Assembly: GCA_049968235.1 (NCBI GenBank)
Contig: JBMFRC010000011.1
Span: 1-64,000, forward strand
Length of the DNA stretch: 64,000 nucleotides
Reading direction: 5' to 3'
Source: Candidatus Hydrogenedens sp.
GTDB taxonomy: Bacteria; Hydrogenedentota; Hydrogenedentia; Hydrogenedentales; Hydrogenedentaceae
The notes below the pieces were generated by a model, which saw nothing but the letters and a program-made list of their open reading frames with translations, was not told the origin of the DNA and did not search any database. A program made the position numbers and the translations under genes. Each line of letters opens with the position of its first letter. Within the stretch, counting starts at the first letter, position 1. This document shows, one piece after another, positions 7,650-60,031 of the stretch.

Positions 7650-7790
7650 GGAAAACTCTTCTCTATAAAAACACCCAATTATTCACCTAATTTTAATTAT
7701 TATAATTATTTATCCTTCTTAAAAATAATATTTACAAATATATCTATCTTAATTTTATATCATAATTATCCAATACTATTATTTTTATCC

Positions 7791-7819
7791 TTGACAAAAA
7801 TAAAATTATGTGTTATTAT
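7791..7819 (+). promoter_or_regulatory. Near-consensus sigma70 promoter (TTGACA-N17-TATTAT) upstream of DUF1559 gene copy 1.
   Basis: TTGACA at 7791-7796, a 17-nt spacer, and TATTAT at 7814-7819. The ATG at 7889 has an AAGGAGG Shine-Dalgarno sequence. Confidence 0.5.
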
Positions 7820-7826
7820 AGTTTTG

Positions 7827-7839
7827 GTAATCGTTATAC
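7827..7839 (+). promoter_or_regulatory. LacI/GalR-type operator-like palindrome GTAATCGTTATAC just downstream of the -10 element.
   Basis: Near-palindrome with a central CG. A nearly identical motif (GTAATCGTTTAC on the opposite strand, 31993-32004) sits at the same position relative to the promoter of the second DUF1559 paralog. Confidence 0.35.
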
Positions 7840-7888
7840 CAATATTTACTATTTATCATTTTTAATTTAACATTAAGGAGGCTTAAAT

Positions 7889-8815
7889 ATGCACAGAAAA
7901 GGTTTTACACTCATTGAACTGCTTGTCGTAATTGCCATTATTGGTATTCTTGCGGCAATATTGTTACCTGCTCTTGCTCGTGCCCGTGAGGCGGCTCGCC
8001 GTTCCAGTTGCCAGAATAATTTGAAACAGTGGGGATTGGTCTTTAAAATGTATTCCAATGAATCTAAAGGTGAAAGGTTTCCAAGATTATGTGCTTATTA
8101 CGGAAACCTGGTAAACTGTGATGTAGCTGGATTTCCTGTAACTCATACCAACACTCTAAGGATTGCTGTGGGTCCTTATGTACCTTCGATATTTCCTGAA
8201 TATTTAACAGACCCCAATATTACGCTATGTCCTTCGGATGCAGAAGCCAAACCTGGAGATTTAACAAATCCGATAACGAATCAATCGGAATTCTACCTTG
8301 CGTGCAATAATATGGAAAGAGGTATGTTCCGTATTGACACAAGTTATGCCTACTTAGGCTATGTATTAGACCGGTGTGAAGATACGGATGAACAAATGAA
8401 TTTAGGTATGTTCGACCCTGAGTACTCTGCTTATAATGGTCCTGCCCAATTTGTAATGCTTGCAGCACAGTTATATGCAGCAGCAGAACCTGAGATTCCG
8501 GCAAAAACAGACCAGGATATTACTGTCGGGACACCTTATGGTAATGCAGGTAGTGCAACAGTATATCGGCTTCGTGAAGGAATTGAACGATTTCTTATAA
8601 CGGATATTAATAATCCTGCAGCAACAGCACAGGCACAAAGCAGTGTGTACATTATGTTTGACCTCGTTGCAACAGCGACTCAGGGGTTTAACCATGTCCC
8701 CGGTGGTTGCAATGTGCTGTATATGGATGGGCATGTGGAATTTGTTCGCTATCCGGGTAAAGCACCTGTAAATCAAGGAATTGCCTGGGTCACAACTGCG
8801 GTTGGATTTTCGTAA
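7889..8815 (+). CDS. Prepilin-type N-terminal cleavage/methylation domain protein of the DUF1559 (H-X9-DG) family, copy 1.
   Basis: The N-terminus ([43 protein letters not shown]) is a classic type IV pilin-like methylation motif plus hydrophobic helix. The C-terminal [12 protein letters not shown] is the H-X9-DG signature region. Confidence 0.9.
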
Positions 8816-15095: not shown

Positions 15096-15249
15096 ATACT
15101 GTCTCCTCATAGTGTTTTTATTATAGATTAAAACGCATTTATTAGTTATTTCACTTTTCTTTACATTTTAATGATAATTTTTTATCTTGTCTAAATTATA
15201 ACATGTAAAGCAATAAAAATCAAGAATATTTAATACTATATTTATATAA

Positions 15250-15305: not shown

Positions 15306-18300
15306 TTATGGTTGAGTACCGGGACAATAACCATCTTCACTACCTTCACACGGGTAATAACCACCGGAATTGAAGAATTGTATTAGACGGAGCAATTCAC
15401 TCAAAGATATTACCCAATCTTGTGGATTATAGTCAGAAGCATGTGGGTTACAGGAATGGTCGCCGGGTCCGGGAGCATATCCATCTTCACCCTGTGGGTC
15501 GCAGTGATATTCATTAAAGTTGAAGAACTGAATAACACGCAATAGTTCCGTTAAATTAATCTTTCCATCTCCATTCTGGTCAGCATTGTGAGGAGGTATT
15601 TCTCCTTCTGGAGTCCCTTCTGGAGTCCCTTCTGGAGTCCCTTCTGGAGTTCCTTCTGGTGTCCCTTCTCCTTCAGGTGGAATTTGAATAAAGATAACAC
15701 CGATTGTTCTGTTCCTGTCCATAGGAACCGTGATTTCAGGTTGCTCAATATTCGCAATTCCTTCTGTATCACCTGTCCATGCACCGAACATCCAGCCGTT
15801 AGCAGGCTGAGCAATAACAGTCTGAGTTTGACCCTCCAGAAATAGATATTCGTTACCTGGAAGTGGAGATGTAGTTCCCTGTCCTTCAACGACATTCAGC
15901 AGTAATTTATAATATACCTGCGGAGCAAATTTCGCTACTAATTGCATGTCTTCACTCAAAACTGTACCAAAAATAGGATTTGATGTAATTAGTGTGTTAC
16001 CGGAATACCACCCTTTGAATACCTGACCTTCACCGGGAACTGCTGTTAATTGAAGCGGGAAATTATTTGATAGTAGATATACATCTGCTAATAAAATTTC
16101 TTCTTCGCCTATAAATACAGTTCCATCGCCTTCTATCTGGAAATCAAATTTCCTACCTTCATTGTCAAAATGCGCTATCATATCATAATGTCCGTTAACA
16201 GTAACTGTTGCGGAATACCAATAAACCCAAGTTGTCTCGGGATTATTATTAGGGTTCTTTATCAATTCCCATCCACCGAAATAATCTTCGGTTTCCGCAT
16301 ATAAACTTAATTGTTTGCCATTAATATAGCAATACGCTCCTGGTCTTGGGGATGTTTCTCCGGTTCCGTTTCCGGCAGTAGTAATGTTCACATTCCAATC
16401 ACAAGGTTCAAATACCGCTATAATCGATAGGCTTTCCTGAACTTGAAGTATTAACACATCATCTGTGCTTATAATTTCATTATCATCAGTTATCCAGTGT
16501 TTTAACGCCCATCCTGAATCAGGATATGCTATATAGTATATCCATTCTCCACCTATATATCCGTAGATACCAGGGACGGGATTTGTTGTTCCATTACCCT
16601 GTGTACTTAACTCTATTGTATATACAGCATCTACGAAACGGGCTACAAGATTACGGTCAGAAGTTACCTGGAAAGAATAAAATGGCCATTCATTTACTAA
16701 TTCGTTGTTTTCATACCAACCCGCAAATGCTTTTCCTGAATCAGGAATGGCTGTAAAGAATGCCCATTGTCCATCAAAGTAGTAATAATTTCCCGGTACT
16801 GGGTTAGTGGTTCCTGGTCCGTCCACAGATATTACTACGGTATAGTCCGTCTCTCTGAAATTTGCAGTTATTACTTTATTTGCATTCATCACAACCTGTA
16901 TAGGATTATCTTGTGGATTTGCTCCTCCTATATCACCACTCCAACCATTAAATACCCAACCCTCCTCAGGATTTGCTGTAATAAGAACAACCTGACCTTC
17001 TGTCTTCTGATATATACCTGGGACGGGGTCAGTCGTTCCTGAACCATTTACATTTATAGTTAAAGTATAGGTTGGTACAGATGTAAAAACGGCACGAATC
17101 GTCATATCTTCTGTTATTTCTACATTTATAGGATTATCTGTTCCTAAATTATTACTATTACCATCTTCCCAATGGTCAAACAGATAACCTGCATCTGGAA
17201 ATGCTGAAATGCTAACGAACGAACCCTGAGCATATTGATATGTCCCTTGATATGGAGATGTAAACCCGTTCCCTATTACTTCTATTTTTAATTGATAGCA
17301 TTGATTGGAGAATATAGCACCAACTGTCTTGTCACTATCCATTACTATATTAGCAAAAGGAGAAGAGCCGAAAGACTGGGCATCTTCTGTCCATCCTCCA
17401 AAGCATGAACCTGTATCCGGTAATGCATATAAATATACCCATTGATTATCTTTAAATGAATAATTACCATTTCCATCATAGAATGGGATAATGGTACCTG
17501 TACCTGTGTTGGATGGGTCAAATGCAAATGTTAATGTATATGTGCCAGGGACAAAAACAGCCTTCACTAAAATATTTTCCTGAACATTATCAAAGAGATA
17601 ACTATAACTATCTGTTAAAAATACATATCCTGCTTTTGCGTTCTCATCCCAAATTTCCCAGTGGTCAAAAGCATAGCCACTATCTGCTTGAGGATATGCT
17701 AAAATAATAAAATCACTATTGATTTCGACTGTATTTACTCCTACTTGAGGTAAAACCTTTCCAATACCTTCCACTTCAATGGTTACGGTTACCTCACATA
17801 CTCCTTCACGAGTTACTACACCACTAGGTTTCACTTTTTGAACCAGTTGGTCGACTAAATAACAAAGTTCCGTAGGAACGGGATTGTACCTAAGGTCAAT
17901 ATAGTCACCATCACCAATTCCTTCGTTGTCTAACAGAAACCCAAAATTCTCTATGTTATTATTGTCCAGATAAACATATTTTAATGCGGTATAGTTTTTT
18001 AAAGGACTTATATCAGAAACCACGTTATTACTTAGATTTAACATTTCTAGAGTTCCTACAGGAGATCCTGAATTGCTTAACCCATATATATTGTTAATTT
18101 GATTCATTGACGCATCTAATGCTACAAGATTAGGCATCATTTCTATACCGGAAAGATTGGTTAATGAATTATCACTTACATTCAACCCTATCAAAGAATT
18201 AAAGGTAAATGGATCTTTTACTGTGAACAATGAAGGACCAATATTATTCCCAGGCAAATTTGCAATCGTTAAACCGTTTAATCCTACAAGACTGTTGATA

Positions 18301-19268
18301 TTTGTAATACCTGTATAGGCACAAAACAACAAATATAAATTACTCCAATTTTGAACAACACCTATATCATTAATGCCAAGCCCTACTAAGAATGCAAAAC
18401 GGGGATTTAACCCGCTAAGATTTGAAAGATCTGTTATATTTTCTTCAGCTAAACCTAATAATCCTGGGTTATCCTCATCTACATAAGTTATATTTGTCAT
18501 GTTGGCTACATAAGTATCCAATTCTGTTTGTCCCAACCCACAATTAGCGGATAAAAATGAATTCAAGTTCTGGTCTACATTTCCCAGAGGGGACCAATCC
18601 GTAATTGGATTACTTCCTAACCATAACTGAGTTAGATTATTCAGATTGTTTAGAAAACTTATATTTGTAACATTCTCCAATCCCCCTATACTTAGTATTT
18701 CTAAATTTACTAAAGAATTTAATACAGCAAGGTCAGCGTCATCAAGATTATTCGCTCCCGTAACAAATGGGTCAAATTCATCATATAAAAATACCGTACC
18801 AAATCCTAAATTTAATCCTACTAAATTTGTTAATGTCGATAAGGCTGAGATATCCGAAATCTGGTTCATTCCTATATCTAAATACTGTAGTCCTGTAAGT
18901 CCTGACAAACTTGAAATATCTGTTATCTGATTCTTTCCTAATAACAAATATATTAAATTCGTTAAACTACTTAATGGTGATACATTTGTTATTTCATTCG
19001 AAACAAGATTTAATACGGTTAAAGAAGTACACGCCTCTAAACCTGTTAAATCGGTAATCCCAAGGTAGGAGGCATCCAATTTAGTAAAATCAGGGTTTGC
19101 TAATTCGGTATCTTGTGGAGGGTTACTCAAAGGGCTTCCGACCTGGTCTTCATATTGTATCTGAACTGCTGACAACAGATTCGGGTCATTAAATATTACA
19201 TCTGCCGAAAAAACATTCAGAGAAAACAGTGCAAAAGCCATCACAACGACTAAAGATTGGATTTTCAT
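15306..19268 (-). CDS. Giant (1320 aa) secreted protein. It has N-terminal internalin-like leucine-rich repeats, about 9 divergent InlB B-repeat-like domains, a PEGTPEG linker and a conserved Cys-containing dockerin/EF-hand-like C-terminal module.
   Basis: Signal peptide MKIQSLVVVMAFALFSLNVFSA, with AAGGAGATG as Shine-Dalgarno. LRRs read LTVLNLVSNEITNVSPLSSLTNLIYLLLGKNQITDISSLSGLTGLQYLDIGMNQISDISAL. Repeated modules follow the pattern Y(T/K)L.I.V.G.GTT.P.PG.Y....G..V.L.A.P..G..F.GWSGD. C-terminal region is PEGEGTPEGTPEGTPEGTPEGTPEGEIPPHNADQNGDGKINLTELLRVIQFFN...YHCD...EDGYAPG...CNPHASDYNPQDWVISLSELLRLIQFFNSGGYYPCEGSEDGYCPG. Confidence 0.85.
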   Translation of the reverse strand: MKIQSLVVVMAFALFSLNVFSADVIFNDPNLLSAVQIQYEDQVGSPLSNPPQDTELANPDFTKLDASYLGITDLTGLEACTSLTVLNLVSNEITNVSPLSSLTNLIYLLLGKNQITDISSLSGLTGLQYLDIGMNQISDISALSTLTNLVGLNLGFGTVFLYDEFDPFVTGANNLDDADLAVLNSLVNLEILSIGGLENVTNISFLNNLNNLTQLWLGSNPITDWSPLGNVDQNLNSFLSANCGLGQTELDTYVANMTNITYVDEDNPGLLGLAEENITDLSNLSGLNPRFAFLVGLGINDIGVVQNWSNLYLLFCAYTGITNINSLVGLNGLTIANLPGNNIGPSLFTVKDPFTFNSLIGLNVSDNSLTNLSGIEMMPNLVALDASMNQINNIYGLSNSGSPVGTLEMLNLSNNVVSDISPLKNYTALKYVYLDNNNIENFGFLLDNEGIGDGDYIDLRYNPVPTELCYLVDQLVQKVKPSGVVTREGVCEVTVTIEVEGIGKVLPQVGVNTVEINSDFIILAYPQADSGYAFDHWEIWDENAKAGYVFLTDSYSYLFDNVQENILVKAVFVPGTYTLTFAFDPSNTGTGTIIPFYDGNGNYSFKDNQWVYLYALPDTGSCFGGWTEDAQSFGSSPFANIVMDSDKTVGAIFSNQCYQLKIEVIGNGFTSPYQGTYQYAQGSFVSISAFPDAGYLFDHWEDGNSNNLGTDNPINVEITEDMTIRAVFTSVPTYTLTINVNGSGTTDPVPGIYQKTEGQVVLITANPEEGWVFNGWSGDIGGANPQDNPIQVVMNANKVITANFRETDYTVVISVDGPGTTNPVPGNYYYFDGQWAFFTAIPDSGKAFAGWYENNELVNEWPFYSFQVTSDRNLVARFVDAVYTIELSTQGNGTTNPVPGIYGYIGGEWIYYIAYPDSGWALKHWITDDNEIISTDDVLILQVQESLSIIAVFEPCDWNVNITTAGNGTGETSPRPGAYCYINGKQLSLYAETEDYFGGWELIKNPNNNPETTWVYWYSATVTVNGHYDMIAHFDNEGRKFDFQIEGDGTVFIGEEEILLADVYLLSNNFPLQLTAVPGEGQVFKGWYSGNTLITSNPIFGTVLSEDMQLVAKFAPQVYYKLLLNVVEGQGTTSPLPGNEYLFLEGQTQTVIAQPANGWMFGAWTGDTEGIANIEQPEITVPMDRNRTIGVIFIQIPPEGEGTPEGTPEGTPEGTPEGTPEGEIPPHNADQNGDGKINLTELLRVIQFFNFNEYHCDPQGEDGYAPGPGDHSCNPHASDYNPQDWVISLSELLRLIQFFNSGGYYPCEGSEDGYCPGTQP
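15603..15672. repeat. In-frame 12-nt tandem repeat (CCTTCTGGAGTC, about 5.5 copies) encoding the PEGTPEG linker.
   Basis: tccttctggagtcccttctggagtcccttctggagtcccttctggagttccttctggtgtcccttctcc read directly. It is coding, not CRISPR-like, because there are no unique spacers. Confidence 0.7.
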
Positions 19269-31952: not shown

Positions 31953-31981
31953 TTGATATTTGTAAACATATAATATATAAT
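31953..31981 (+). promoter_or_regulatory. Near-consensus sigma70 promoter (TTGATA-N17-TATAAT) upstream of DUF1559 gene copy 2. It is divergent from the LacI-family gene.
   Basis: TTGATA at 31953-31958, a 17-nt spacer containing TGTAAAC, and TATAAT at 31976-31981. Confidence 0.5.
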
Positions 31982-31992
31982 ATAGGTATAAA

Positions 31993-32023
31993 GTAAACGA
32001 TTACTTCAATGGGCGAAGTAATC
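31993..32023 (+). promoter_or_regulatory. LacI-type operator-like near-palindrome GTAAACGATTAC (31993-32004). It overlaps a perfect 9-bp stem hairpin (GATTACTTC-AATGGGC-GAAGTAATC, 31999-32023) in the 5' UTR.
   Basis: The half-sites GTAAAC/GTAATC flank a central CG, typical of LacI/GalR operators. The motif is essentially identical, as a reverse complement, to the one downstream of the copy-1 promoter (7827-7839). The hairpin arms are read directly from the sequence. Confidence 0.35.
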
Positions 32024-32061
32024 AAAAAAGGTTTATTAACAAAAATATAAGGAGTAATCCT

Positions 32062-33045
32062 ATGAAGAAAAAAGGTTTCACACTCATCGAACTGCTGGTC
32101 GTTATTGCAATCATTGGCATCCTCGCTGCAATATTGTTACCAGCACTGGCACGGGCACGCGAAGCGGCAAGACGCTCCAGCTGCCAGAACAATTTAAAAC
32201 AATGGGGTCTCGTTTTCAAAATGTATTCTAACGAGGCGAAGGGAGAACGGTTTCCTCCCATTCAGGCAGGTGGTTATAAGAATGTAAATGGGCAACTTAA
32301 ACCTGTTTTAGATGCAGGACCCAATGTATTTGTTCTGTATCCGGAATATCTGACGGACCCCATGATTATCTTTTGTCCATCGGATGCAGAATTAGGTCAA
32401 TCTATTGCCAAAGCACATCTCAATGGGGATGTTAATCAAGATTGGTGTATTGGTTATGCGGATAGCAATGGTGGAAATTGTGCGCGTGCCATTGACGCGA
32501 GTTATGGCTATTTAGGTTGGGTTTTAGATAAAGGGAATTGTCCCCCGCAAGACCCCGTATCTACGCTTAGCAGTTTTACCTATTTAGGCACGATTGCGTC
32601 ATTCCTTGGTGTAACAATTGACATGAACACCGAAGTTTCTACACAAGTTGGTTCAGCACTGGATTATTTGGTTCAACAAATATTGCCATTATTGAGTGGA
32701 AGTAGTATTCCCAATGGAATTCTTCCCATAGCTGACAATGATATACCTGTTCCTAATGGTGTAGGAAACGGTGGTGGTTCTACTGTATATCGTCTTCGTG
32801 AAGGTATTGAACGTTTCTTGATCACAGACATTAACAATCCAGCAGCATCAGCACAAGCCCAAAGTTCCGTATGGATTATGTTTGACCAGTTATCAACCAA
32901 TCCTGCGGCATACAACCATATTCCCGGAGGTTCAAATGTGTTATACATGGATGGTCATGTGCAGTTCCAGAGATATGGTGAATGTGAACCTGCTCCTGTG
33001 AATAAGCCTATGGCAGTCCTTGTGGGTATTTTGACCTCCAATTAG
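32062..33045 (+). CDS. Prepilin-type N-terminal cleavage/methylation domain protein of the DUF1559 (H-X9-DG) family, copy 2. It is a paralog of 7889..8815.
   Basis: The first ~60 aa ([54 protein letters not shown]) are identical to copy 1, although the nucleotides diverge synonymously. The C-terminus ([34 protein letters not shown]...[11 protein letters not shown]) is conserved and the middle segment is divergent. Confidence 0.9.
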
Positions 33046-42898: not shown

Positions 42899-45505
42899 TC
42901 ATATAACTTTTTCTTCTCTCCTATCCACATTGAAGATTATTTCATTATTATCGTTTGTATCAATGTGGACATGATCACCTTCTCGGATGCCCTGAGAAAG
43001 GATTTGCATTGCCAGAGCATCCACGACCTTACGCTGGATTAGGCGTTTTAATGGTCTTGCTCCAAAAACGGGGTCATAGCCTTCTTCCGCGAGTAGTTCT
43101 TTAGCACTATCACTTACAGAAAGTCTGATTTCTCTATCCGATAATCGATTTATAACCTGATTTAATTGCAAATCAACAATTTGTCGTATCTCTTCTTTCT
43201 TCAACGGTTGGAATAGAATAATATCATCAACACGATTTAAGAATTCAGGACGGAAATGATTATGAAGAATATTTGTTACATACTCAACCTGTTTCTCATA
43301 AGGCATGTTCGTTTTCTGGAATACTTCACTGCCTAAGTTTGATGTCATGATAATAATTGTGTTTCTGAAATCTACTGTTCGACCTTTTCCGTCTGTTAAT
43401 CGTCCATCATCAAGCAATTGTAGAAGGACATTGAATACTTCGGCGTGTGCTTTTTCAATTTCATCCAGAAGAACTACACTATAAGGTTTTCTTCTTACTG
43501 CTTCTGTAAGTTGTCCTCCTTCTTCATATCCGACATAACCGGGAGGTGCACCAATAAGTCGTGCTACGGAATGTTTTTCCATGTATTCGGACATGTCAAT
43601 CCGTATCATTGCCTGTTCATGGTCGAACAATAACTCCGCTAAAGCACGTGCCAGTTCTGTTTTTCCCACTCCTGTGGGTCCAAGGAAAATAAAAGAACCT
43701 ATAGGACGATTGGGGTCTTTCAGTCCGGCTCTTGCTCTACGGACAGCATCGGACACAGCACGGATACCTTCTTTTTGTCCTACTACACGATGAGAGAGTC
43801 GTTCTTCCATATTTATTAATCTTTGCATTTCACCTTCCAATAGACGGTCTACGGGAATTCCTGTCCAACTGGATACTATTTTGGAGATATGTTCATCGGT
43901 AACTTCTTCACTTAGAAAACTTCCGTTCTTTTGTATTTCCTCTAACTCTTTCTTTCTCAATTCTAATTCTTGTCTTAAGTGGTTCAATTCTCCATAGATA
44001 ATTTCTGAGGCTTTTCCTAAATCACCCTGACGCTGTGCAATTTCAGATTGTCGTTTTGCTTCTTCAATGCGGGCATTAATTTCGCGGATTTGGTTTATTA
44101 CCGCTCTTTCTGTTTGCCATTTTGCCTTTTTAGCGTTTAATTCTTCACGAATTTCGGCAATTTCTTTTTCGATGGCTTCTCGTCTTTCGACACCTGACTT
44201 TTCCGTTTCTTTTTTTAATGCCAGATGTTCTATTTCTAATTGACGAATCCTTCTATCAAGCACATCAATCTCGTAAGGCATACTATCAATTTCTATCCGT
44301 AATCGGGAGGCAGCTTCATCAATCAGGTCAATCGCTTTATCCGGCAAAAATCGGTCTGTGATATAACGATGGCTTAAATAAGCAGATGCAACAATGGCAT
44401 CATCACGAATACGAACTCCGTGGTGTACCTCATATTTTTCTTTAAGACCACGGAGAATAGCAATAGTATCCTCAACATCAGGTTCCTCTACAATAATTGG
44501 CTGAAATCTTCTTTCCAATGCAGGGTCTTTTTCAACATGCTTCCGATATTCATCGAGGGTTGTTGCCCCTATACAATGGAGTTCTCCGCGTGCTAAGGCG
44601 GGTTTTAACATGTTGGATGCGTCCATTGCTCCTTCGGCGGAACCCGCACCTATAAGTGTGTGCATCTCATCAATGAACAGGATTATATTCCCTTGAGACT
44701 CCTGGATAGTAGAAAGAACCGCTTTAAGTCGTTCTTCAAATTCACCACGAAACTTACTTCCAGCAATAAGAGCAGATAGATCTAAAGCATGAATTCGTTT
44801 GTTCTTTAATGATTCAGGGATATCTCCCGAAACTATTCGTTGTGCTAAACCTTCTACTATGGCTGTTTTTCCGACACCGGGTTCGCCAATAAGCACCGGG
44901 TTATTTTTTGTTCTTCGGGATAAGACCTGAATCACTCTTCGTATTTCTTCGTCCCTACCAATAACAGGGTCTAATTTTCCTACCCGGGCTAACTGGGTTA
45001 AATCTCTACTAAACCGTTCCAGAGCATCATAGGTAGATTCCGCATTGGGGTCATCTACGCGTTGATTTCCTCTTACTTCTTTCAACGCAGATAATAGGGA
45101 AGTTTCCGTAATACCTAAATTTTTTAAGATTTTTCCTGCATGGTTCGTTTTTTCTCGAACCATACCTAACAGGACATGCTCGGAACTTAAATATTGGTCT
45201 TTTAATGTTTGGGCAAAATTCCATGATGTTTCTAATACCTGTTGAAGTTCATAGGACAGATTGGGATTATGAAGACCCGATGAAATATGTGGAAGTTTCT
45301 CCATCTCTCTATTTATCGAAGCATTTATCTGTCCTTTTGAAAGCCCTAATCTCTGTAGTATTGGAACAACTGCTGAATTTTCTTTCGTGATTAATGATGT
45401 TAGTAAATGTAAGGATGTAATTTCAGGATGTCCTTTATTTGTAGCTAAATCAAGGGCTTCCGATAATGCATCCTGTAAAGGTATAGTTAATCTATCAAAT
45501 CTCAT
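42899..45505 (-). CDS. clpB: ATP-dependent chaperone ClpB.
   Basis: Clp N domain ([33 protein letters not shown]). Two AAA+ modules ([20 protein letters not shown]; [17 protein letters not shown]). A long middle coiled-coil region typical of ClpB. Confidence 0.95.
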
Positions 45506-45697
45506 AATTTATTACCTCCTTCTTTTTATTTATTTTTTATTAGCAATTGGTGTGCCAGATTAAAAAGTAGATTTTCTGCTCATTTTACATAATCTTTGTT
45601 TCAAAAAGAGATTTGTTTTGTAACACTGTTCCAGTTTAAAACAAAAGAGGCAAACCTTTTTGCAAAGATTTGCCTCTAATAATTACGACCTATTAAA

Positions 45698-51608: not shown

Positions 51609-54305
51609 CTAGTTCGGATGAAGCGTAAAGGAATCAATCCAGATATTTACATTATTAAGGGTACATGGGTCAATACGAATTGCCTTAATTTTTCCGTTCC
51701 AATTAGGATGGTCCCGTAAATTAAAGGTATAGGTATAATAACCTCCATCTACACGAATAGGTATTGTAATGGAGTTTTCCTCATTGAATTGTAACCCTTT
51801 TGATGACCAATATAACTGTGCTTTATTTTCCATTGGTGCTGGATTTTCTACACGCAATCGTAAAGTGGCTCTTGGAAATTGATTTGCATTAATACCTTTT
51901 GTACCATAGTAAAAGAAATAAATAGATGGGTCATCTGTATTCGTTCTACCTGTAAGACTTCCTTCCTCTACTTTTATATCATTCATACCTCTGAATACCT
52001 TCCATCCTGATAATGATTCATGGAAGTCCCATGATGTCTCAAAAGCAGGGACAGGAAAGTCATACGGTCCCAATCCTATGTCATCGGGAGAAATATTAAC
52101 AGGCAATGGTTGTGTATTGGATGAGACAAAAACATTGCGAATGGCTTCATACATTGTAAATCCAAATTCTGTATTAGGCTCGATATAACTACCTTCTCCC
52201 CATTCGTTTAATGGGCCTAAAATAATTATTGGTATTTTTTTCTCTTCCGCAAAATCACGAGCGGACAATAACATTGTCTTGAACAGTTCTGAAGTCCTTC
52301 CCTCAATAACCAATGCCTTGGAACCATGCCAGGGACGCGAATCCCAACCTGTTTCTACAATGGGATAATAAGTCATTCCTTCACATAAAGCGCTTTTCTC
52401 CATCCAAACAGTTGGTATTGTAGAAACAACATCTTCATATTTAGCACGGTTAGGGATTTGGCTCATATAAACTGCTTTATAAAATTCATGGTAATTTGTA
52501 AACGATGAATAACCTTCGTTTTTTAATGTTTGCAACTCAGAGGCAGATTGATTGTTGTTTATCGCCATAAATTCAATACCTTCGTAGCCTGCTTCTTTAG
52601 CCCATTGCTGGGATTTTTCTAACAATGCCTTTACTGCTTCGGAACTACCTAAATCATGGCGAATATTCTCCGGGGACCAGATGCACACAAGTGGTTTATT
52701 ATTAACCCTATAATAAGATGGTAAATTAAAATAGTTATCTATCCATTCTCTATTTACCTTTTCCCAGTCTTCGGCAGAGTGGGTATTGGGAGGATTATGG
52801 TTTGCCCACATAATTGCTACTTTCAAATAATCTCTATACTTTGCTTTGCGATAGGCTTCGAACCAATGAGTTAAGGATTGTTTTCCCGCAACCCAATACC
52901 AATCAACAAGGAAACATTTAATTCCATTCTCTACAGCCCATTTAATCTGCCAATCCACACACTCCGGATTTCCTTCATTATAATAACCCAAAATAGGTTT
53001 TCTTATGGGAGCTGTTGTTTGAATACAATCCCATTTTTCGAGAGTATCCCAACCTGGGAAATAAAACGCACATATATCTATTTTAGTTTTAATTGGTTTC
53101 GGTTCAGGGACATATTCTGCGGATATTTTTCTAATTTCAGGTAATACCTGTAATTCTCCGGTATTGATAGTTAATACAGTTCCTTTGGATAAAGGTATAA
53201 CCTCTATGGGATAGATGCCTGATTTTTCTGGAGTAACTTTCCAGTAAACATCTATGAAATCATCATATTCAATTTCATACGGAGGCTCGGGAATGGGTCC
53301 TTTTTCTATTCTTAAAGAACCCGGATGATTAAATTTTAGATTATCAATACGGGCAACACTACCTCCCTGATTGGAAAGTCGTAATAAAACAGGGACTTCT
53401 CTACCCGCTCGTATACCACCTTGAGCAGAACCGAAATAAGAGACTACGACTTCAGGTTTGTTCAGTGGTTCTTCCCCAATAGACAGAGAATTTATTTTTA
53501 TATTTGAACCATCGTGAATATAAAATCCTAAGGCAAGAATGGGTTCTTTCCATGTAGAATATTGAGACATGTCAATAACACTAACATGCATTTTGTTATC
53601 AGTAACCAATGGTAGAGAAATCGTTTGAGGTCCTAAAATATCCTGACTTGCCCAAATAAAATCTATTGAATTAGCACTTTTACTTGCAGAATACTCAATT
53701 GAAAGATATTTTCTCTTTCCAATAAGCAATGATATAGGTTTAAAGAAATAATAGGGGCTATTTTCTGAATCAATTTTCCATGAGGAGATATCCCCTTCGG
53801 GGAATTGCCACTCGTAAACATCTGTAACAGGGGGTTCCCCTTTATCCCATGTTTTTACAGAAATTTTCTCTAATTCAAATTCCAGAGCATCACACAAATC
53901 CAATCGTATTTTAATAATTTTCCCCTCTTTATGCCAGAATGGAAAAACATAAATATCCTGCCAATCATTCTTTTCTTCAAAACTAAAATTGACAGATTTA
54001 TCTCCCGATAGCCCTCCGTATTGTCCTTCATTTGTTCCGGACCAAAATATCTGCCCCATACCTCCATGGTTTGTTTTCATACGAATATGTATGTATTGAT
54101 AGGGAGTTGGAACAAATTCAATTCCTTTGCATAAAAGAAAAGGGTCTGTACCTTGTGTTCTACCCTGCAATTTTCCACCTTCTATTTTTACATCCTGTAT
54201 CTGTCCATTCGGAACCCATTTCTGTAATACTTCGGGATTATCAAATGTCCATTCAGGAAGTTGACAATTTAGGAAATATAGGATAACTAAGGAAGTTAAT
54301 AACAT
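51609..54305 (-). CDS. Secreted multi-domain glycoside-hydrolase-like protein (898 aa). It has a TIM-barrel-like core flanked by beta-sandwich domains. The family is undetermined.
   Basis: N-terminal hydrophobic leader. The central region AFYFPGWDTLEKWDCIQ...ILGYYNEGNPECVDWQIKWAVENGIKCFLVDWYWVAGK...AIMWANHNPP is reminiscent of glycosyl-hydrolase-like TIM-barrel DUFs. I could not place it in a CAZy family. Confidence 0.5.
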   Translation of the reverse strand: MLLTSLVILYFLNCQLPEWTFDNPEVLQKWVPNGQIQDVKIEGGKLQGRTQGTDPFLLCKGIEFVPTPYQYIHIRMKTNHGGMGQIFWSGTNEGQYGGLSGDKSVNFSFEEKNDWQDIYVFPFWHKEGKIIKIRLDLCDALEFELEKISVKTWDKGEPPVTDVYEWQFPEGDISSWKIDSENSPYYFFKPISLLIGKRKYLSIEYSASKSANSIDFIWASQDILGPQTISLPLVTDNKMHVSVIDMSQYSTWKEPILALGFYIHDGSNIKINSLSIGEEPLNKPEVVVSYFGSAQGGIRAGREVPVLLRLSNQGGSVARIDNLKFNHPGSLRIEKGPIPEPPYEIEYDDFIDVYWKVTPEKSGIYPIEVIPLSKGTVLTINTGELQVLPEIRKISAEYVPEPKPIKTKIDICAFYFPGWDTLEKWDCIQTTAPIRKPILGYYNEGNPECVDWQIKWAVENGIKCFLVDWYWVAGKQSLTHWFEAYRKAKYRDYLKVAIMWANHNPPNTHSAEDWEKVNREWIDNYFNLPSYYRVNNKPLVCIWSPENIRHDLGSSEAVKALLEKSQQWAKEAGYEGIEFMAINNNQSASELQTLKNEGYSSFTNYHEFYKAVYMSQIPNRAKYEDVVSTIPTVWMEKSALCEGMTYYPIVETGWDSRPWHGSKALVIEGRTSELFKTMLLSARDFAEEKKIPIIILGPLNEWGEGSYIEPNTEFGFTMYEAIRNVFVSSNTQPLPVNISPDDIGLGPYDFPVPAFETSWDFHESLSGWKVFRGMNDIKVEEGSLTGRTNTDDPSIYFFYYGTKGINANQFPRATLRLRVENPAPMENKAQLYWSSKGLQFNEENSITIPIRVDGGYYTYTFNLRDHPNWNGKIKAIRIDPCTLNNVNIWIDSFTLHPN

Positions 54306-54393: not shown

Positions 54394-54429
54394 TATACCC
54401 GCCGAAATTATCAAATCTCGGCGGGTATA
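54394..54429 (-). terminator. Intrinsic terminator downstream of the EF-hand/PEG giant gene.
   Basis: A 12-bp perfect stem (TATACCCGCCGA ... TCGGCGGGTATA) with a 12-nt loop. On the minus-strand transcript it is followed by a U-rich tract (the complement of AAAAGAA). Confidence 0.65.
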
Positions 54430-54455: not shown

Positions 54456-57400
54456 TTACTTAAGCCCACCACAATAACCATCCTCTTCTTCAGGACATAT
54501 TCTGTAACCACCCATGTTAAAGAACTGTATTAACCGCAATAATTCATTAAGGCCAATACGCCAATCTTGTGGAGCATAATCGCTGGTATGCGGTGGACAA
54601 TTGTGGAATGAATCATTTCTTCCAGGGGCATATCCATCTTCTGTCGAACCTTCACAATGATACCCAAAGGAGTTAAATAGTTGAATAACGCGAAGTAGTT
54701 CTCCTATTTCAAATTTCCAATTAAAGTTTCTATCCGCAGAATGTATTCCATGTGGGATTTCTCCTTCTGGCGTGCCTTCCGCAACACCTTCGGGTATGCC
54801 CTCTGGTGTCCCTTCTACAATACCTTCTGGCTGTCCCTCGGGTATGCCTTCTGGCGTGCCTTCCACAACACCTTCGGGTATGCCCTCTGGGGTTCCTTCA
54901 ACGATACCTTCCGGTGTCCCTTCTACAACACCTTCTGGCTGTCCCTCGAGGACACCTTCGGCTGTACCTTCTAAGACACCTTCCGGTGTCCCTTCCGCAA
55001 CGCCTTCGGGTTGTCCTTCCGGTATCCCTTCTGCAACACCTTCCGGTTGTCCTTCGGGTGTGCCTTCAACGACGCCTTCTGGGGTACCTTCTACGATACC
55101 CTCCGGTTGTCCTTCGGGTATGCCTTCGGGAGAGCCTTCTACTGTTCCTTCACCTTCAGGAGAAGGTAAGAAATCGGAGCAGTCAAGAACGCCATTATCA
55201 TTCTTATCTGCAACATCAAACTGGTCTTGTGTAATTTTTGAACTCAAAGCACGCACTTCCGTTAGAGTTAATTCATTATCACCATTCGAATCGAGTTTGG
55301 GTAGCAAATTAAATATGGAACTTACTGCTGTAAATTCTTCAAAAGTTAATTGATTATCCCTGTTCTTATCTACCAGATACCATACGCCAGCAATAATTAT
55401 ATCACTCCAACCTGTCAGGGATTTAAATTCGCTTTTTGATAACAAACCATCGCCATTGGTATCTCCAAATAGGAGCATAATCAGGAAATAATGTTCAATA
55501 TCATCAATATCACAGGTAGGAGGTTCCCCTTCTATAACACCTTCCGGGATGCCTTCAGGAGTACCCTCAACTATACCTTCACCTTCAGGTATACCTTCAG
55601 GAATACCCTCTTGTGTCCCCTCTGGTGTACCTTCCGGGGTGCCTTCCGGGGTGCCTTCAGGTGTTCCCTCTGGTGTGCCTTCCGGGGTACCTTCAACTAC
55701 ACCTTCGCCTTCAGGCAATACAAAGTCATTGCAATCAAGAACACCGTTTTGATTTAAATCCACTGCATTTAACTGGTCCATAGTTATATTGGAATTCAGG
55801 TTTTGCAATTCTATAAGCGTAAGGGCACCATCGTTATTTCCATCTAATCCTGGCAACAGGTTATACAACCACTCCACCTTAGAGAACTCTTCAAGAGATA
55901 ACTGATTATCTCCATTCGTATCAACGGCACTCCATAATAATAGGACAGTATCACTCCAACCTGTAATGGCTTTAAGTTCTTCTTTAGATAATAATCCATT
56001 CCCATCTGTGTCGCCGAACATAATCAAGATATAGTAGTAATGTGTAATATCATCAATATCACAGGGTGGTTCACCTTCAAAAGTCCCCGGACAAGGTGGA
56101 CAACCACCACCGTTCAGGGTCTGATTAATATCCAGTGCAGAAAGAATAAAGGTATCTATATCCGTAGGTGCAAATACATAGGCTTTATACTCACCTATAT
56201 TACAGACTTCATCAAAATCCGGGTCACCGGCGGAAGCAAGGTATTGTCCTGCGGTTAAATCATATCCGTTTAATGTGAATGTGCCCCAGAACATTAATGT
56301 ATCAATCACATTCACAATAGAATTGATAAACGATTGTTCACCTGTAGTAAGGACCCCAGCAACAACATTGATAAATGTTGTGTTCGAGAAAATCGTGCTT
56401 AATAATGGAATAGAATCCCATTTGCTTTGAGCCACAACACGATTATTCATATATGCGTTTTTCACACAGCAGAAAATAGGCAATTCCGGATGTGCAAGAA
56501 TATAATCTAACAATCTTGCCTGTGCAACATCATACATACCATTACCATCTATATCCGCTGTATCGGGATTTACGCTAAGGAAAGAAGCAATGCCATATAA
56601 ACTGCGTAATGCTGTTTCAAACCCCGCATTTACTGCAGTTTGATTGCAGTTATCCCAGCACCATTCAGCATAACAAGATTCTGGAAGTGGACCCATAATA
56701 TCGATGCAGTCGAGATAGCCATTGCCATCAATATCATGTTGATTAAATTGGTCTTGTGTAATTTTGGAACTCAATTGCCTTATTTCAGTTAAAGTTACCT
56801 GATTGTCGCCATTCGAATCGAGGTTTGCAGGTAAAAGTCCACCCAAACGATTGCTGGCTACAAATTCGTCAAAGGACATAAAACCATCACCGTTTTTATC
56901 AATTATCCACCATCCTAAATCTAAAAGGAACCCTGTTACAAAGGCTTTTAATTCATTTTTTGTTAACTTACCATCACCATTTGTATCACCAAACATTATT
57001 AACAATGCGAAATAGTTTTCATCAGAACGCATATTACAGGGAGGTGGACCTCCACCTTCGCCTTCACCTTCAACGGTTCCTTCTGCCCCACATGCGGGAC
57101 AACCACCATAATAATCTGTAATACTACTATTAATAGCCGCATTCACAAATGCATCAAAGTCCGCAGGTGTGTTCACAACCCATGCTTTGTATTCACCAAT
57201 ATTGCAGACACCGTCCAAATCCGCATCACCTTTGGCATTCAGATAAACAATATTTGAGCCATCCAATTCTAATAAGGAAAGGTCGGGTAAGTTAGGAATT
57301 ATCCAATTCAACGCTGATAGAATAGTATTAATAATTGCTGTGTTCCCCATTGTTGCCAGTGCTGCGAAGAAGGTTTTCATACCTTCAAGGTCTGGTGGCG

Positions 57401-57824
57401 TTCCTAAATAGGATGGCCAGCCTGTCTGTATGGCAAGTGCTAACGCTTCCACTTTCAAACGATTGCCTGCATACGCCCAATATATACAATTACGAGTGGG
57501 TATCCCACCAATTAATGAAAAACTTCCCATAATTGTATCGAATAAACGTGCCTGGGCAGTATCTTTCATTCCATCAAAATCTAAATCAAGATTATCTGGA
57601 TTTCCTCCAATTAATGGGATTTTCGCATATAATTCCCGCATTGAATTTTCAAAACTTTCAGTATATACAGGACCGGGTATTAAATTATTGCAATTAGGAA
57701 TATTGCAATAATCCACTTCTGCATCTGTTTGTGCAACTGATGAAGAAGAAAAAACAAAACATACACTCATGATAAGGAACAAAGTTCCTATGTATATTTT
57801 GCTTGTATTAATCTTAATGTTCAT
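54456..57824 (-). CDS. Giant (1122 aa) secreted protein with two copies of an unknown ~200-aa domain and three blocks of four canonical EF-hand/dockerin-like Ca-binding loops. It also has long PEG(T/I/V)PEG linkers and the same conserved Cys-containing C-terminal module as the 15306..19268 protein.
   Basis: Signal peptide MNIKINTSKIYIGTLFLIMSVCFVFSSSSVAQ, with an AAGGAG Shine-Dalgarno sequence. EF-hand loops include DTNGDGKLTKNE, DKNGDGFMSFDE, DSNGDNQVTLTE and DIDGNGYLDCID, repeated in three blocks. Linkers read EGTPEGTPEGTPEG... The C-terminus reads ELLRVIQLFNSFGYHCEGSTEDGYAPG...CPPHTSDYAPQDWRIGLNELLRLIQFFNMGGYRICPEEEDGYCGG. Confidence 0.85.
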   Translation of the reverse strand: MNIKINTSKIYIGTLFLIMSVCFVFSSSSVAQTDAEVDYCNIPNCNNLIPGPVYTESFENSMRELYAKIPLIGGNPDNLDLDFDGMKDTAQARLFDTIMGSFSLIGGIPTRNCIYWAYAGNRLKVEALALAIQTGWPSYLGTPPDLEGMKTFFAALATMGNTAIINTILSALNWIIPNLPDLSLLELDGSNIVYLNAKGDADLDGVCNIGEYKAWVVNTPADFDAFVNAAINSSITDYYGGCPACGAEGTVEGEGEGGGPPPCNMRSDENYFALLIMFGDTNGDGKLTKNELKAFVTGFLLDLGWWIIDKNGDGFMSFDEFVASNRLGGLLPANLDSNGDNQVTLTEIRQLSSKITQDQFNQHDIDGNGYLDCIDIMGPLPESCYAEWCWDNCNQTAVNAGFETALRSLYGIASFLSVNPDTADIDGNGMYDVAQARLLDYILAHPELPIFCCVKNAYMNNRVVAQSKWDSIPLLSTIFSNTTFINVVAGVLTTGEQSFINSIVNVIDTLMFWGTFTLNGYDLTAGQYLASAGDPDFDEVCNIGEYKAYVFAPTDIDTFILSALDINQTLNGGGCPPCPGTFEGEPPCDIDDITHYYYILIMFGDTDGNGLLSKEELKAITGWSDTVLLLWSAVDTNGDNQLSLEEFSKVEWLYNLLPGLDGNNDGALTLIELQNLNSNITMDQLNAVDLNQNGVLDCNDFVLPEGEGVVEGTPEGTPEGTPEGTPEGTPEGTPEGTQEGIPEGIPEGEGIVEGTPEGIPEGVIEGEPPTCDIDDIEHYFLIMLLFGDTNGDGLLSKSEFKSLTGWSDIIIAGVWYLVDKNRDNQLTFEEFTAVSSIFNLLPKLDSNGDNELTLTEVRALSSKITQDQFDVADKNDNGVLDCSDFLPSPEGEGTVEGSPEGIPEGQPEGIVEGTPEGVVEGTPEGQPEGVAEGIPEGQPEGVAEGTPEGVLEGTAEGVLEGQPEGVVEGTPEGIVEGTPEGIPEGVVEGTPEGIPEGQPEGIVEGTPEGIPEGVAEGTPEGEIPHGIHSADRNFNWKFEIGELLRVIQLFNSFGYHCEGSTEDGYAPGRNDSFHNCPPHTSDYAPQDWRIGLNELLRLIQFFNMGGYRICPEEEDGYCGGLK
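54761..55165. repeat. Long imperfect in-frame tandem repeat of about 12-15 nt encoding the (V/I)(V/A)EGTPEG(I/Q)PEG linker. A second block lies at about 55535-55730.
   Basis: Repeated ccttctgg/ccttcggg units are visible directly. The alternative-frame ORFs listed in this region are low-complexity artefacts. Confidence 0.7.
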
Positions 57825-57914
57825 TGTGTAACTCCTTATTCTTAATTATTTTTTATAATTAATTCTACCTGAAAAGTTTATCTTATGTAAAAAAATCTTA
57901 ATAATGGGGGGTAT

Positions 57915-58373
57915 CTAACAAAGAAGAGGGAGGAAAGGTATTTTTGAAGAAATCTTCATTTCTACATCTTTTGAAAGTGAGTAATATTGCTTTGTGATAT
58001 TTTCCTCTTTATTTTGACAAAAATTTGTCTCAATTAAATTATTATGATTAGTTAAATTTTTCAATAAAAGCGAAGTTTTTTCTGTTCTTAATATAGAACT
58101 AAATAAAATCATGTTTTTTAATGTTCTGGGTGTGGGAACTTTTGTTTTTTCATTCTTAATTTTTTGAACAATCAGACACAAATCACGAACATCAATTGTA
58201 GAATCCCCGTTCATATCTTTTATTTCTGCAGTAAGTGAGGAGTTCGCTTGATTTAATATAGAAGTTAAGACACTTTGCCATAATATAACATTCAGATTTT
58301 GAAATGTGCTTATCATCATTAGGGGATATAAAAATAGTCCCAAAACTGTAAAAACACAAACAAACTTTTTCAT
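57915..58373 (-). CDS. Small secreted protein (about 152 aa) with a single dockerin/EF-hand-like loop. It lies immediately upstream of, and in the same orientation as, the EF-hand giant.
   Basis: Signal-like MKKFVCVFTVLGLFLYPLMMIS. Loop DMNGDSTIDVRDLCLIVQKI follows the D-x-N-x-D...DL..I...I pattern. Start is placed at MKKF rather than at the tracked upstream Met. Confidence 0.4.
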   Translation of the reverse strand: MKKFVCVFTVLGLFLYPLMMISTFQNLNVILWQSVLTSILNQANSSLTAEIKDMNGDSTIDVRDLCLIVQKIKNEKTKVPTPRTLKNMILFSSILRTEKTSLLLKNLTNHNNLIETNFCQNKEENITKQYYSLSKDVEMKISSKIPFLPLLC

Positions 58374-58510
58374 TTCAAAACTCCTCATATATATATTATA
58401 ACATATAAACACATAAAATAAATATCAAATTTGATGTTTTTTTTGTTAAAATATTTTTGGAGTTTTTTATTTATTTTTTAAGAAGTATTTTTAATTATGG
58501 GATTTTGAGA

Positions 58511-60031
58511 ATGAATTTAGAAGCAAGGCAATTTTTGCAACAAAGGCAGGAATTACAATTATCGTTGTTCCAACAGCAATCATTACAAATACTACAAATG
58601 TCGACCATCGAATTAGAACAATACATTGTACAGGAGGCTGAAAGTAACCCATATCTTGAAATAGAGTATAAATCATTAGATAGCGAAGTAGAATCAAATC
58701 TCCCTCTTGAAGATTCAGAATTATCTTCAACAGGTATAAGCAAGGATCATCTCTTTGATAATGATACTACTTATACTCAAGATGGAACCATTGATATGAA
58801 GTCTGAGGAGCAATATGCAGATATAACAGAAGAAAAAGATGATATGGCAGAATTATGGGAGCATGAATACAATAGAACAAATACAAATACGGACCTGAGT
58901 TATAACCCGGACATAGATGAATGGGTAGAAAGTAAATTTAATAACATTAAAAGTCAGGAGACCCTTAGAAGCCACTTGATGAAACAATTATATATTGAGT
59001 TTAATGACCCCCAAGAAATCCAGATAGGTGAAAGTATTATAGCTAGTATTGACTCTCGCGGATATTTTGTTGGAAATATAGAAGATATATCTAAAGAATT
59101 TGATGTTACACCTGAAAAGGTCGAAAAAGTTTTGAAAAGAATACAGGGATTTGACCCTTCCGGCGTAGGAGCAAAAGATGTAAAAGAATGTTTGCTAATT
59201 CAGATTAATCAAATATATCCTGACAATATCCTTCTGAAAAAATTGGTAGAAGAATATTTTGATGAACTTACCCATCGACAGATTCCCAAAATATCTCGGG
59301 GATTGAAAATTGAGCCTTATCAGGTAGAAGCATTGATTGACTTATTAAAAACCTTAAATTTGTTTCCTGGACATTTGTTTCCGGAAGAACCAAATAATAT
59401 CATCCCTGATGTTATTGTAAAATTTACCGAAGATGATGGACTTGCTATTGAAATACATGATAAGCGTCTTCCCGAAATAAAATATGTGGAACCTATAAAA
59501 AAAGAACAGATAAAGATATTACCCAAAGAAGAGAAAGAGCAGATAAAAAAATATAAAGATTCGGCAATTCGATTAATAAAATGCCTTGAACTGAGAAAAA
59601 GTACCTTATATAAGGTTGCAAGAGAGATAGCAATTTTTCAAGAAGAGTTTATGCGTAAAGGAGTTGATTATTTAAAACCATTAACTTATAAAACCATTGC
59701 AGACCGTATTAATATACATGAATCAACAATCTCCCGTTGTATTGCGGGTAAATACATGGCTACCCCACAAGGAATCTTTGAATTCCGTTATTTCTTTTCA
59801 GGGGGCATCAAAACAAGTGAAGGTGAAAATGAAAAATCATCGCGTACAGTTCAGAGCATCATCAAGAGAATTATTGAGGAAGAAGACAAAACAAAGCCTT
59901 TAAGTGACCAGCAAATCGCTGAATTCATTCTAAAAAAGGAAGGAATAAAAATTGCACGGAGAACTGTATCAAAATATCGGGAGGCAATGAATATTCCTAA
60001 TGCTTTTGAACGGAAAGTTTACAAGAAGTAA
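58511..60031 (+). CDS. rpoN: RNA polymerase sigma-54 factor.
   Basis: N-terminal region I (LQQRQELQLSLFQQQSLQILQMSTIELEQYI), a long acidic region II, and a C-terminal RpoN box (ARRTVSKYREAMNIPNAFERK). Start is placed at the internal ATG (MNLEARQFL). Confidence 0.9.
   Translation: MNLEARQFLQQRQELQLSLFQQQSLQILQMSTIELEQYIVQEAESNPYLEIEYKSLDSEVESNLPLEDSELSSTGISKDHLFDNDTTYTQDGTIDMKSEEQYADITEEKDDMAELWEHEYNRTNTNTDLSYNPDIDEWVESKFNNIKSQETLRSHLMKQLYIEFNDPQEIQIGESIIASIDSRGYFVGNIEDISKEFDVTPEKVEKVLKRIQGFDPSGVGAKDVKECLLIQINQIYPDNILLKKLVEEYFDELTHRQIPKISRGLKIEPYQVEALIDLLKTLNLFPGHLFPEEPNNIIPDVIVKFTEDDGLAIEIHDKRLPEIKYVEPIKKEQIKILPKEEKEQIKKYKDSAIRLIKCLELRKSTLYKVAREIAIFQEEFMRKGVDYLKPLTYKTIADRINIHESTISRCIAGKYMATPQGIFEFRYFFSGGIKTSEGENEKSSRTVQSIIKRIIEEEDKTKPLSDQQIAEFILKKEGIKIARRTVSKYREAMNIPNAFERKVYKK

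Follow-up and report, generated by a model that had tools for sequence, protein, structure and literature searches.

Within a 64,000-nucleotide stretch of Candidatus Hydrogenedens sp. DNA (GenBank assembly GCA_049968235.1, contig JBMFRC010000011.1, positions 1 to 64,000 of the forward strand; hereafter the window), the minus-strand open reading frame (ORF) 54456..57824 encodes a 1122-residue protein, here called the EF-hand protein, and a small ORF encoding 152 residues lies directly upstream on the same strand. The large ORF starts with an ATG preceded by AAGGAG 7 nt on its 5′ side, and its product runs, in order, through a predicted signal peptide, a copy of a repeated domain (DomA), a module of four EF-hands (EF4), a second DomA, a second EF4, a linker of (x-P-E-G)n repeats (PEG linker), a third EF4, a second PEG linker and a C-terminal module (CTD) (Table 1). 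The mature protein would have 1091 residues (~117 kDa, pI ~4.05, net charge ~-136) and 24 Cys, with an even number in every module. The exact 1122-residue sequence has no entry in a collection of 15 billion proteins, and the exact 152-residue one occurs in NCBI as hypothetical protein ACP5UA_08905 of Candidatus Hydrogenedens sp.; the NCBI entry closest to the EF-hand protein, P0001, ends at a contig edge within a PEG linker.

Table 1. Positions in the window of the EF-hand gene, its parts, the neighbouring small gene and associated signals.
Feature	Position	Strand	Basis
Whole EF-hand protein gene	54456..57824	-	ORF list, Pfam, sequence reading, orthologs
Predicted signal peptide, residues 1-31 (...SSSSVAQ/TD)	57732..57824	-	read from sequence
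DomA copy 1, residues ~36-247, acidic loops DLDFDGMKDTAQ and DADLDGVCNIGE, CxxxxC and GGCPxC bounds	57084..57719	-	
Short EG linker	residues ~248-262	-	read from sequence
EF4 module 1, residues 263-378 (loops start at 280, 309, 336, 364; C263/C373 bracket)	56691..57038	-	Pfam, alignment, pattern
DomA copy 2, residues ~383-580	56085..56678	-	
EF4 module 2, residues 586-702 (loops start at 605, 635, 661, 689; C588/C698 bracket)	55719..56069	-	Pfam, alignment, pattern
PEG linker 1, residues 703-767, (x-P-E-G)n	55524..55718	-	sequence and DNA repeats
EF4 module 3, residues 768-886 (loops start at 788, 819, 845, 873; C771/C882 bracket)	55167..55523	-	alignment, orthologs
PEG linker 2, residues 887-1022, (xPEG)n	54759..55166	-	sequence and DNA repeats
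CTD, residues 1023-1122: two repeats (acidic loop, ELLRxIQFFN helix, beta-hairpin), 4 Cys	54459..54758	-	
Small putative partner gene, 152 aa: hydrophobic N-terminal signal or anchor, loop-helix at residues 53-72, C-terminal Cys	57915..58373	-	
Sigma-70-like promoter motif TTTACA-18-TAGAAT, between small ORF and EF-hand gene	57862..57891	-	consensus scan
Terminator-like hairpin with a stem of 16 bp (7 GC pairs) and a T-rich tail, 27 nt past the EF-hand gene stop	54394..54429	-	
Second CTD copy, at the end of the 1320-aa leucine-rich repeat/InlB B-repeat protein, behind a PEG linker	15309..15608	-	

The identification of the EF-hands is carried by both pattern and profile. A PROSITE-type loop consensus was matched by all twelve 12-residue loops, against a mean of 0.0125 and a maximum of 1 in 2000 shuffles of the protein, and every loop has ligands at positions 1, 3, 5, 9 and 12, a hydrophobic residue at position 8 and Gly or Asn at position 6, and leads into a helix. 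Five Pfam models scored above their cut-offs, with E-values from 2e-29 to 8e-15, namely EF-hand_1 (99.3 bits, cut-off 25.4, E 2.2e-29), EF-hand_6 (88.9 bits, cut-off 25, E 3e-26), EF-hand_5 (81.7 bits, cut-off 25.9, E 1e-23), EF-hand_7 (82.7 bits, cut-off 30, E 2e-23) and EF-hand_8 (54.8 bits, cut-off 28); EF-hand_7, which describes a domain pair, matched three stretches, so that the hands are paired, four to each EF4 module. The three quartets are 44-57% identical to each other, the third being nearest the second (57%). Because the closest solved sequences are those of the four-EF-hand Entamoeba proteins CaBP2 and CaBP1 (5e-9), followed by polcalcins and calbindin, each EF4 module is an ordinary calmodulin-type four-hand pack, and since twelve canonical EF-hands are present, the protein should bind calcium. 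Additionally, each module is bracketed by two Cys, one just before helix 1 and the other at position 10 of the fourth loop, which suggests a disulfide staple.

Taken by themselves, the EF-hands are ordinary, and standard profiles already pick them up. Profile searches place the loops in a well-characterised family, although the EF-hand family as such assigns no role to the protein. Other families that were tried were rejected: beta-roll/RTX, thrombospondin type 3 and Excalibur models gave no Pfam match at E<=1 over the whole protein, the XopAW type III effector model (NCBIfam NF041410) reached 56.7 bits against a cut-off of 120, reflecting generic EF-hand similarity, and SPARC_Ca_bdg (PF10591) reached 17.9 bits (E 0.0038), below its 22-bit cut-off.

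The PEG linkers total ~200 residues and are encoded by tandem DNA repeats of 12/24/36/48 nt. Assemblies evidently break at such PEG/EG repeats, and a large number of the CTD matches in the databases are contig-edge fragments. FliH matches in NCBIfam were discarded as artefacts of the E/G/P-rich linkers, and the opposite-strand ORFs 54752..55234(+) and 54772..55353(+), rich in PSG and LLQ, are reverse-frame readings of the linker repeats and no genes.

The initial annotation of this stretch, made from the letters alone, had described three quartets of EF-hand loops, a duplicated Cys-containing domain of ~200 residues, PEG linkers, a shared C-terminal module and a 152-residue loop-helix ORF immediately upstream, and all of these were borne out. 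Of the two Cys strings it quoted for the duplicated domain, GGGCPPCPG is present as given, and CGGCPACG instead reads YGGCPACGA.

Orthologs of the EF-hand protein are 43-87% identical to it, and the ratio of nonsynonymous to synonymous substitution rates (dN/dS) of 0.07 in the ortholog comparison points to strong purifying selection on the gene. Three EF4 modules occur in orthologs at 74-87% identity and two, with module 3 absent, in those at 66-69%; since the closer orthologs have three modules and the more distant ones two, module 3 together with a linker is a recent, lineage-specific internal duplication. The n-h-c layout of the signal peptide and its junction, AQ followed by T, S or N, recur in the orthologs. 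Because it has a Sec-type signal peptide, even-numbered Cys in the mature chain and covarying Cys pairs in its CTD, the protein looks extracellular and Sec-exported.

The two DomA copies share 36% identity (E 8e-29). Fourteen copies, taken from nine proteins, align as a discrete module that starts with C..C..C and ends with GGGCPxC, and within it two acidic loops, DxDxxGxxDxAQARLxD and GDxDxDxxCNxGEY, are invariant; in the predicted model the domain is ~200 residues long and all-alpha, with both acidic loops leading straight into a helix. One of these loops, DADLDGVCNIGE, is no more than loosely similar to the Excalibur motif DxDxDGxxCE. When 1.84 billion representative proteins were searched exhaustively with HMMER, 201 clusters matched DomA at E<=1e-3, 72 of them at E<=1e-10, and in these proteins the domain accompanies immunoglobulin-like (Ig), PKD, C-type lectin, InlB-repeat and P-domain modules. 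DomA is a discrete mobile module, with no variation in the residues of its acidic loops and with further occurrences on P-domain, Ig and lectin proteins. No Pfam or NCBIfam model covers it, the Pfam matches in these proteins being confined to the Ig, PKD or lectin domains next to it, and none of the sources gave it a name in the nine distant members looked up. The alternation of DomA with EF4 was found in the EF-hand search in P0001-P0008 only, and all of these that carry a taxon label are from Hydrogenedens or Hydrogenedentota.

The CTD consists of the form HSAD-x3-4-(D/N)-xx-I-x-L-x-ELLRVIQFFN-x-GGYHC...EDGYxPG, occurring twice in ~100 residues, and in the CTD alignment D, E, L, R, Q and N do not vary in either repeat, the two repeats being tandem calcium-loop plus helix segments. 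Where the first Cys of a pair is absent from an aligned CTD, the second is absent too, and such covariation would be the signature of two disulfides. The AlphaFold2 model (pLDDT 95.3) shows loop, helix and beta-hairpin twice. A profile search found at least 461 proteins with a CTD, nearly all of them named 'hypothetical protein' and coming from Candidatus Hydrogenedentes or Hydrogenedens metagenome-assembled genomes (MAGs), and a scan of one genome per species confirmed at least 590 CTD loci, almost all in Hydrogenedentota; among the best 80 of these loci, 21 came from a single MAG and 13, 12 and 8 from three others. The module is always C-terminal, the stop lying a median of 31 residues beyond the second ELLRxIQ motif, and its cargo is mostly of the kind found on cell surfaces: the 55 proteins scanned carried PASTA (16), InlB B-repeat (14), bacterial surface Ig-like (7), CHRD (6), Ig (5) and EF-hand (5) domains and, less frequently, HYR, GLUG, P-domain, PKD and beta-helix domains.

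Similarity of the CTD to dockerins is recurrent and faint. Among 31 CTDs, Dockerin_1 gave three matches below its cut-off of 22.9 bits (best 6.7e-4) and EF-hand_6 matched 19 below threshold; in the EF-hand protein itself Dockerin_1 had no match at E<=1. Foldseek comparison of the CTD with the PDB returned dockerins repeatedly, none with a significant E-value, and a PDB profile search gave faint EF-hand matches only. Profile-profile comparison aligned the loop-helix motif alone both between DomA and CTD (probability 5%) and between the small ORF and CTD (probability 15%), a likeness at the level of the motif only. Taken together, we concluded from these comparisons that the CTD would work like a C-terminal display or sorting tag that shares a loop-helix unit with dockerins and EF-hands and is no member of the dockerin family. 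A role as display or sorting tag is supported by P0010, a protein with many EF-hands that carries a true Dockerin_1 (1e-19) at the position equivalent to the CTD. The CTD is a tag in general use across the phylum on unrelated cargo, and says little about the EF-hand gene in particular.

Several observations made in passing concern this tag. In the window the second CTD copy ends the product of 15306..19268(-), a 1320-residue secreted protein with leucine-rich repeats, at least six divergent InlB B-repeats and a PEG linker, and the first loop of this CTD is a perfect EF loop, DQNGDGKINLTE. The gene directly downstream of it, 10362..15110(-), encodes 1582 residues in which a beta-helix-like N-terminus is joined to two PKD domains and numerous Ig-like repeats, and its product ends without a CTD in a hydrophobic helix followed by RKRACLRK, which would indicate a second anchoring mode in the same organism. 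CTD loci, up to 21 per genome, were also found in MAGs titled 'uncultured Nitrospirales bacterium' (L012-L018, L023-L031 and others; CAYYRW01, CAYXPO01, CAZJTZ01), of which another, L011, appears to hold an ortholog of the EF-hand protein, and in two records titled Patescibacteria or Buchananbacteria; these titles probably reflect mislabelling or bin contamination and not a wider distribution of the CTD.

The small upstream ORF has a ribosome-binding site, GAGGAG, before its ATG, stops 90 nt before the EF-hand gene and contains a single dockerin/EF-like loop-helix, DMNGDSTIDVRDLCLIVQKI. Of ten distinct loci, nine have a homolog of it immediately upstream of the EF-hand ortholog (the window, L002, L003, L004/L005, L006, L007, L008, L089/L090 and L091/L092), in agreement with the earlier expectation that it would be conserved in relatives. 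At L004 and L006 the pair is kept although rpoN is not upstream and a pectate-lyase-like gene stands in place of the WbsX-like gene that usually follows. The only locus without the pair is L001, where the EF-hand protein is 70% identical and the 526-nt gap between rpoN and the EF-hand gene (7475..8000) holds neither a homolog nor a remnant of the small ORF. At L002 (7250..7728) a frameshift splits the small ORF, leaving a 36-residue ORF with a signal-like N-terminus and the loop-helix in the next frame, which is either a sequencing error or a pseudogene. The family comprises 12 clusters only, all from Hydrogenedens, and among the best 80 CTD loci no homolog stands beside any other CTD protein. 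Since it is found only beside EF-hand orthologs, even where the neighbourhood differs as at L004 and L006, the small ORF is specifically linked to the EF-hand gene.

The dN/dS of the small ORF, 0.34-0.39 against 0.07 for the EF-hand gene, is that of a real gene that evolves fast; its products nevertheless retain a hydrophobic stretch at the N-terminus, the loop-helix D-x-N-x-D-x-x-x-D-x-x-DLC and a terminal Cys. Dockerin_1 scores 15.8 bits on the small protein (cut-off 22.9) over profile positions 3-29 of 57, equal to one segment, and its first half was matched below the cut-off by all seven homologs in the small-ORF alignment (best 3.7e-4). A type I dockerin was therefore rejected, the score being below the Pfam cut-off and the protein having one loop-helix segment instead of two. 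Charge complementarity with the acidic large protein was likewise rejected, as the small proteins have pI values of 6.1-9.6 and are not consistently basic.

Most loci begin with a divergent rpoN, followed by the small ORF, the EF-hand gene and a WbsX/GH99-like gene. A T-tailed hairpin with a 16-bp stem lies 27 nt after the EF-hand stop, and the downstream WbsX/GH99-like gene is therefore probably transcribed separately. The small ORF and the EF-hand gene would thus form a unit of their own, within which co-transcription is plausible; a sigma-70-like motif lies between them, and sigma-70-like matches in total were no more frequent than in shuffled sequence. No sigma-54 promoter was found upstream of the pair, though rpoN is divergent there.

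Based on these findings, we propose, with roughly balanced confidence, that the locus encodes a conserved Candidatus Hydrogenedens protein which is exported by Sec, displayed at the surface and dependent on bound calcium for its structure, and which works with a small partner protein. The signal peptide would be cleaved after residue 31, and each module would then be locked by its own disulfides. Calcium would load the 12 canonical sites of the three calmodulin-like EF4 modules and up to six further acidic loop-helix sites in the two DomA copies and the CTD. Because the sites would be permanently filled outside the cytoplasm, at environmental calcium concentrations far above typical micromolar affinities, calcium may serve as a folding and rigidifying cofactor and not as a signal. 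The proline- and glutamate-rich PEG linkers could form extended, negatively charged spacers, and the CTD, as the common C-terminal tag of the phylum, could hold the protein on the cell envelope or sort it there. The two DomA heads, with two acidic loops each, would be the likeliest ligand-binding parts, and the small protein encoded 90 nt upstream would be a dedicated partner.

Several points weigh against this proposal. The fourth loop of every EF4 quartet has Asp and not Glu at position 12, and Asp in place of Glu at the end of an EF loop usually weakens calcium binding. The likeness of the CTD to dockerins is statistically weak, and no receptor for the CTD is known. DomA has no structural relative among the solved structures of the PDB, and since it has no functional annotation either, its role as a ligand-binding head is a guess. 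Lastly, the small partner is dispensable at least at L001, which is without the small ORF.

The initial annotation had gone further and proposed a calcium-dependent extracellular scaffold or assembly; the extracellular location and the calcium binding agree with the sequence, whereas the scaffold is not supported by it; no cohesin-like receptor was found, and the CTD sits on many unrelated cargo proteins. Such a scaffold would resemble a cellulosome, with DomA and/or EF4 binding the dockerin-like CTDs or the half-dockerin of the small protein, and would assemble other proteins that bear a CTD in a calcium-dependent manner. It would account for the dockerin-type loop-helix motifs in both the CTD and the small ORF, for the ratio of ~200 clusters with DomA, in 1-2 or more copies, to at least 461 CTD proteins or 590 CTD loci, as expected of a receptor and its ligands, and for the CTD carried by most DomA proteins, as scaffoldins carry a dockerin. 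However, DomA is all-alpha and no beta-sandwich cohesin module is present, the scanned ORFs of the window included, all dockerin similarity is below every significance threshold and two DomA copies make for low valency, and we regard such a scaffold as very unlikely. A broader proposal, doubtful though not negligible, is that Hydrogenedentota possess a surface-display system in which the disulfide-stapled, dockerin-like CTD, set behind PEG/EG spacers, attaches dozens of proteins per cell to a receptor in a calcium-dependent manner, and that the DomA-EF4 protein with its half-dockerin partner is receptor, adaptor or scaffold in this system and not mere cargo. For the step of tethering alone, the CTD could instead be a recognition signal for outer-membrane translocation, similar in role to the C-terminal domain of the type IX secretion system (T9SS) and perhaps removed later, so that the EF-hand protein would be released. 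Its strictly C-terminal position behind a flexible linker, on dozens of unrelated cargo proteins per genome, is the pattern of known C-terminal sorting domains such as T9SS CTDs and PEP-CTERM; but a disulfide-stapled loop-helix pair differs from the T9SS beta-sandwich, in the window it had no dedicated secretion genes as neighbours, and the long PEG spacer better fits display away from an anchor point, which makes a translocation signal unlikely.

The extreme acidic charge and the density of sites (~12-18) would also suit a calcium sink or chelator at the cell surface, which could loosen calcium-crosslinked anionic polysaccharide gels (extracellular polymeric substances, pectin, alginate-like) for neighbouring glycan enzymes, buffer calcium or control mineral nucleation, and the neighbours are indeed consistently glycan-active (WbsX/GH99-like, Pect-lyase_RHGA_epim, GH2, GH127, sulfatase), with the Pect-lyase_RHGA_epim gene at L004 and L006 and the GH2, GH127 and sulfatase genes nearby. 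Nevertheless, one site per ~90 residues makes a poor stoichiometric chelator, the neighbouring genes lie behind a terminator or on the other strand, and a pure sink needs neither DomA nor a dedicated partner, so that we consider this function quite unlikely. Binding of lanthanides or other metals in the manner of lanmodulin is exceedingly improbable: four-EF-hand modules outside the cytoplasm and an NCBIfam LanM match (NF053806, 31.3 bits, E 1.8e-7) would speak for it, but this score is far under the 135-bit cut-off and reflects generic EF-hand similarity, and the window showed no methanol or XoxF context. A Pro as second residue of the loop is reportedly a lanmodulin marker, described by Cotruvo et al. 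in 2018; in all twelve loops of the EF-hand protein this position is T, K, S, I, G or L.

Like EF4, the Entamoeba histolytica proteins CaBP1 and CaBP2 (2jnx, 1jfj) hold four canonical 12-residue loops in ~115 residues, but they are small cytosolic signalling proteins, whereas here three Cys-bracketed modules belong to a secreted chain of 117 kDa that also contains DomA, PEG linkers and the CTD. The EC domain of SPARC/BM-40 likewise has extracellular EF-hands with disulfides, but as one EF pair in a eukaryotic protein with another domain context. Calsymin (CasA) of Rhizobium etli, like the EF-hand protein a secreted bacterial protein with repeated EF-hands, consists of three domains with two EF-hands apiece and is not known to carry accessory domains or an anchor. 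The earlier view that the architecture is unusual for bacteria was too strong, since the metagenomic proteins P0009, P0010 and P0015 hold more EF-hands: P0009, labelled 'Ca2+-binding EF-hand superfamily protein' by JGI, has ~9 copies of the same Cys-bracketed EF4 module with PxEGE linkers and the same CTD, and P0010 and P0015 have more than 20 EF-hands, all three being without DomA. As for the CTD, type I dockerins have ~60-70 residues against its ~100, which include an added beta-hairpin and disulfide per repeat, and the type I dockerin/cohesin system belongs to cellulolytic Firmicute hosts, whereas the host of the CTD is Hydrogenedentota. The T9SS CTD, PEP-CTERM and LPXTG are, like the CTD, lineage-restricted tags that stand at the extreme C-terminus of surface or secreted proteins, unrelated to each other and numbering dozens in each genome, but the CTD differs from them entirely in fold and sequence and has neither a transmembrane helix nor a sortase or exosortase motif.

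A full-text literature search found nothing on the EF-hand protein, DomA, the CTD or the CTD motif, and DomA, the CTD and the two-gene cassette lie outside Pfam 2025, NCBIfam 20.0, the PDB and the searched literature. The EF-hand gene alone is unlikely to overturn anything, and the CTD is the more interesting lead. With its at least 590 loci, it looks like the main surface-protein tag of the uncultured Hydrogenedentota; a defined CTD model would improve the annotation of hundreds of 'hypothetical' proteins and would open a way into the cell-surface biology of this phylum, for which metagenomes, mainly from anaerobic digesters, sediments and mats, are the only source. Additionally, an extracellular, disulfide-stapled EF4 could appeal to protein engineers as a calcium-dependent rigid spacer.

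The rest of the window is an ordinary Hydrogenedentota chromosome. The conserved downstream neighbour of the EF-hand gene, 51609..54305(-), encodes 898 residues with a central WbsX/GH99-like domain (residues 437-721), flanked by ~430 N-terminal and 170 C-terminal residues without a Pfam match, and the rpoN gene on the other side lies at 58457..60031. Other genes in the window encode GH127, sulfatase, DUF1559 pilin-like, hybrid histidine kinase, 2-oxoacid dehydrogenase E2/E3, H+-pyrophosphatase, RNase III and acyl carrier proteins. The two DUF1559/N-terminal-methylation (type IV pilin-like) proteins, 7877..8815(+) and 31981..33045(+), are of a type abundant in PVC-type genomes. A perfect sigma-54 -24/-12 element, TGGCAC-N5-TTGCT, the sole match without a mismatch in the window, lies at 45542..45557(-), ~34 nt upstream of the 869-residue ORF 42899..45508(-).

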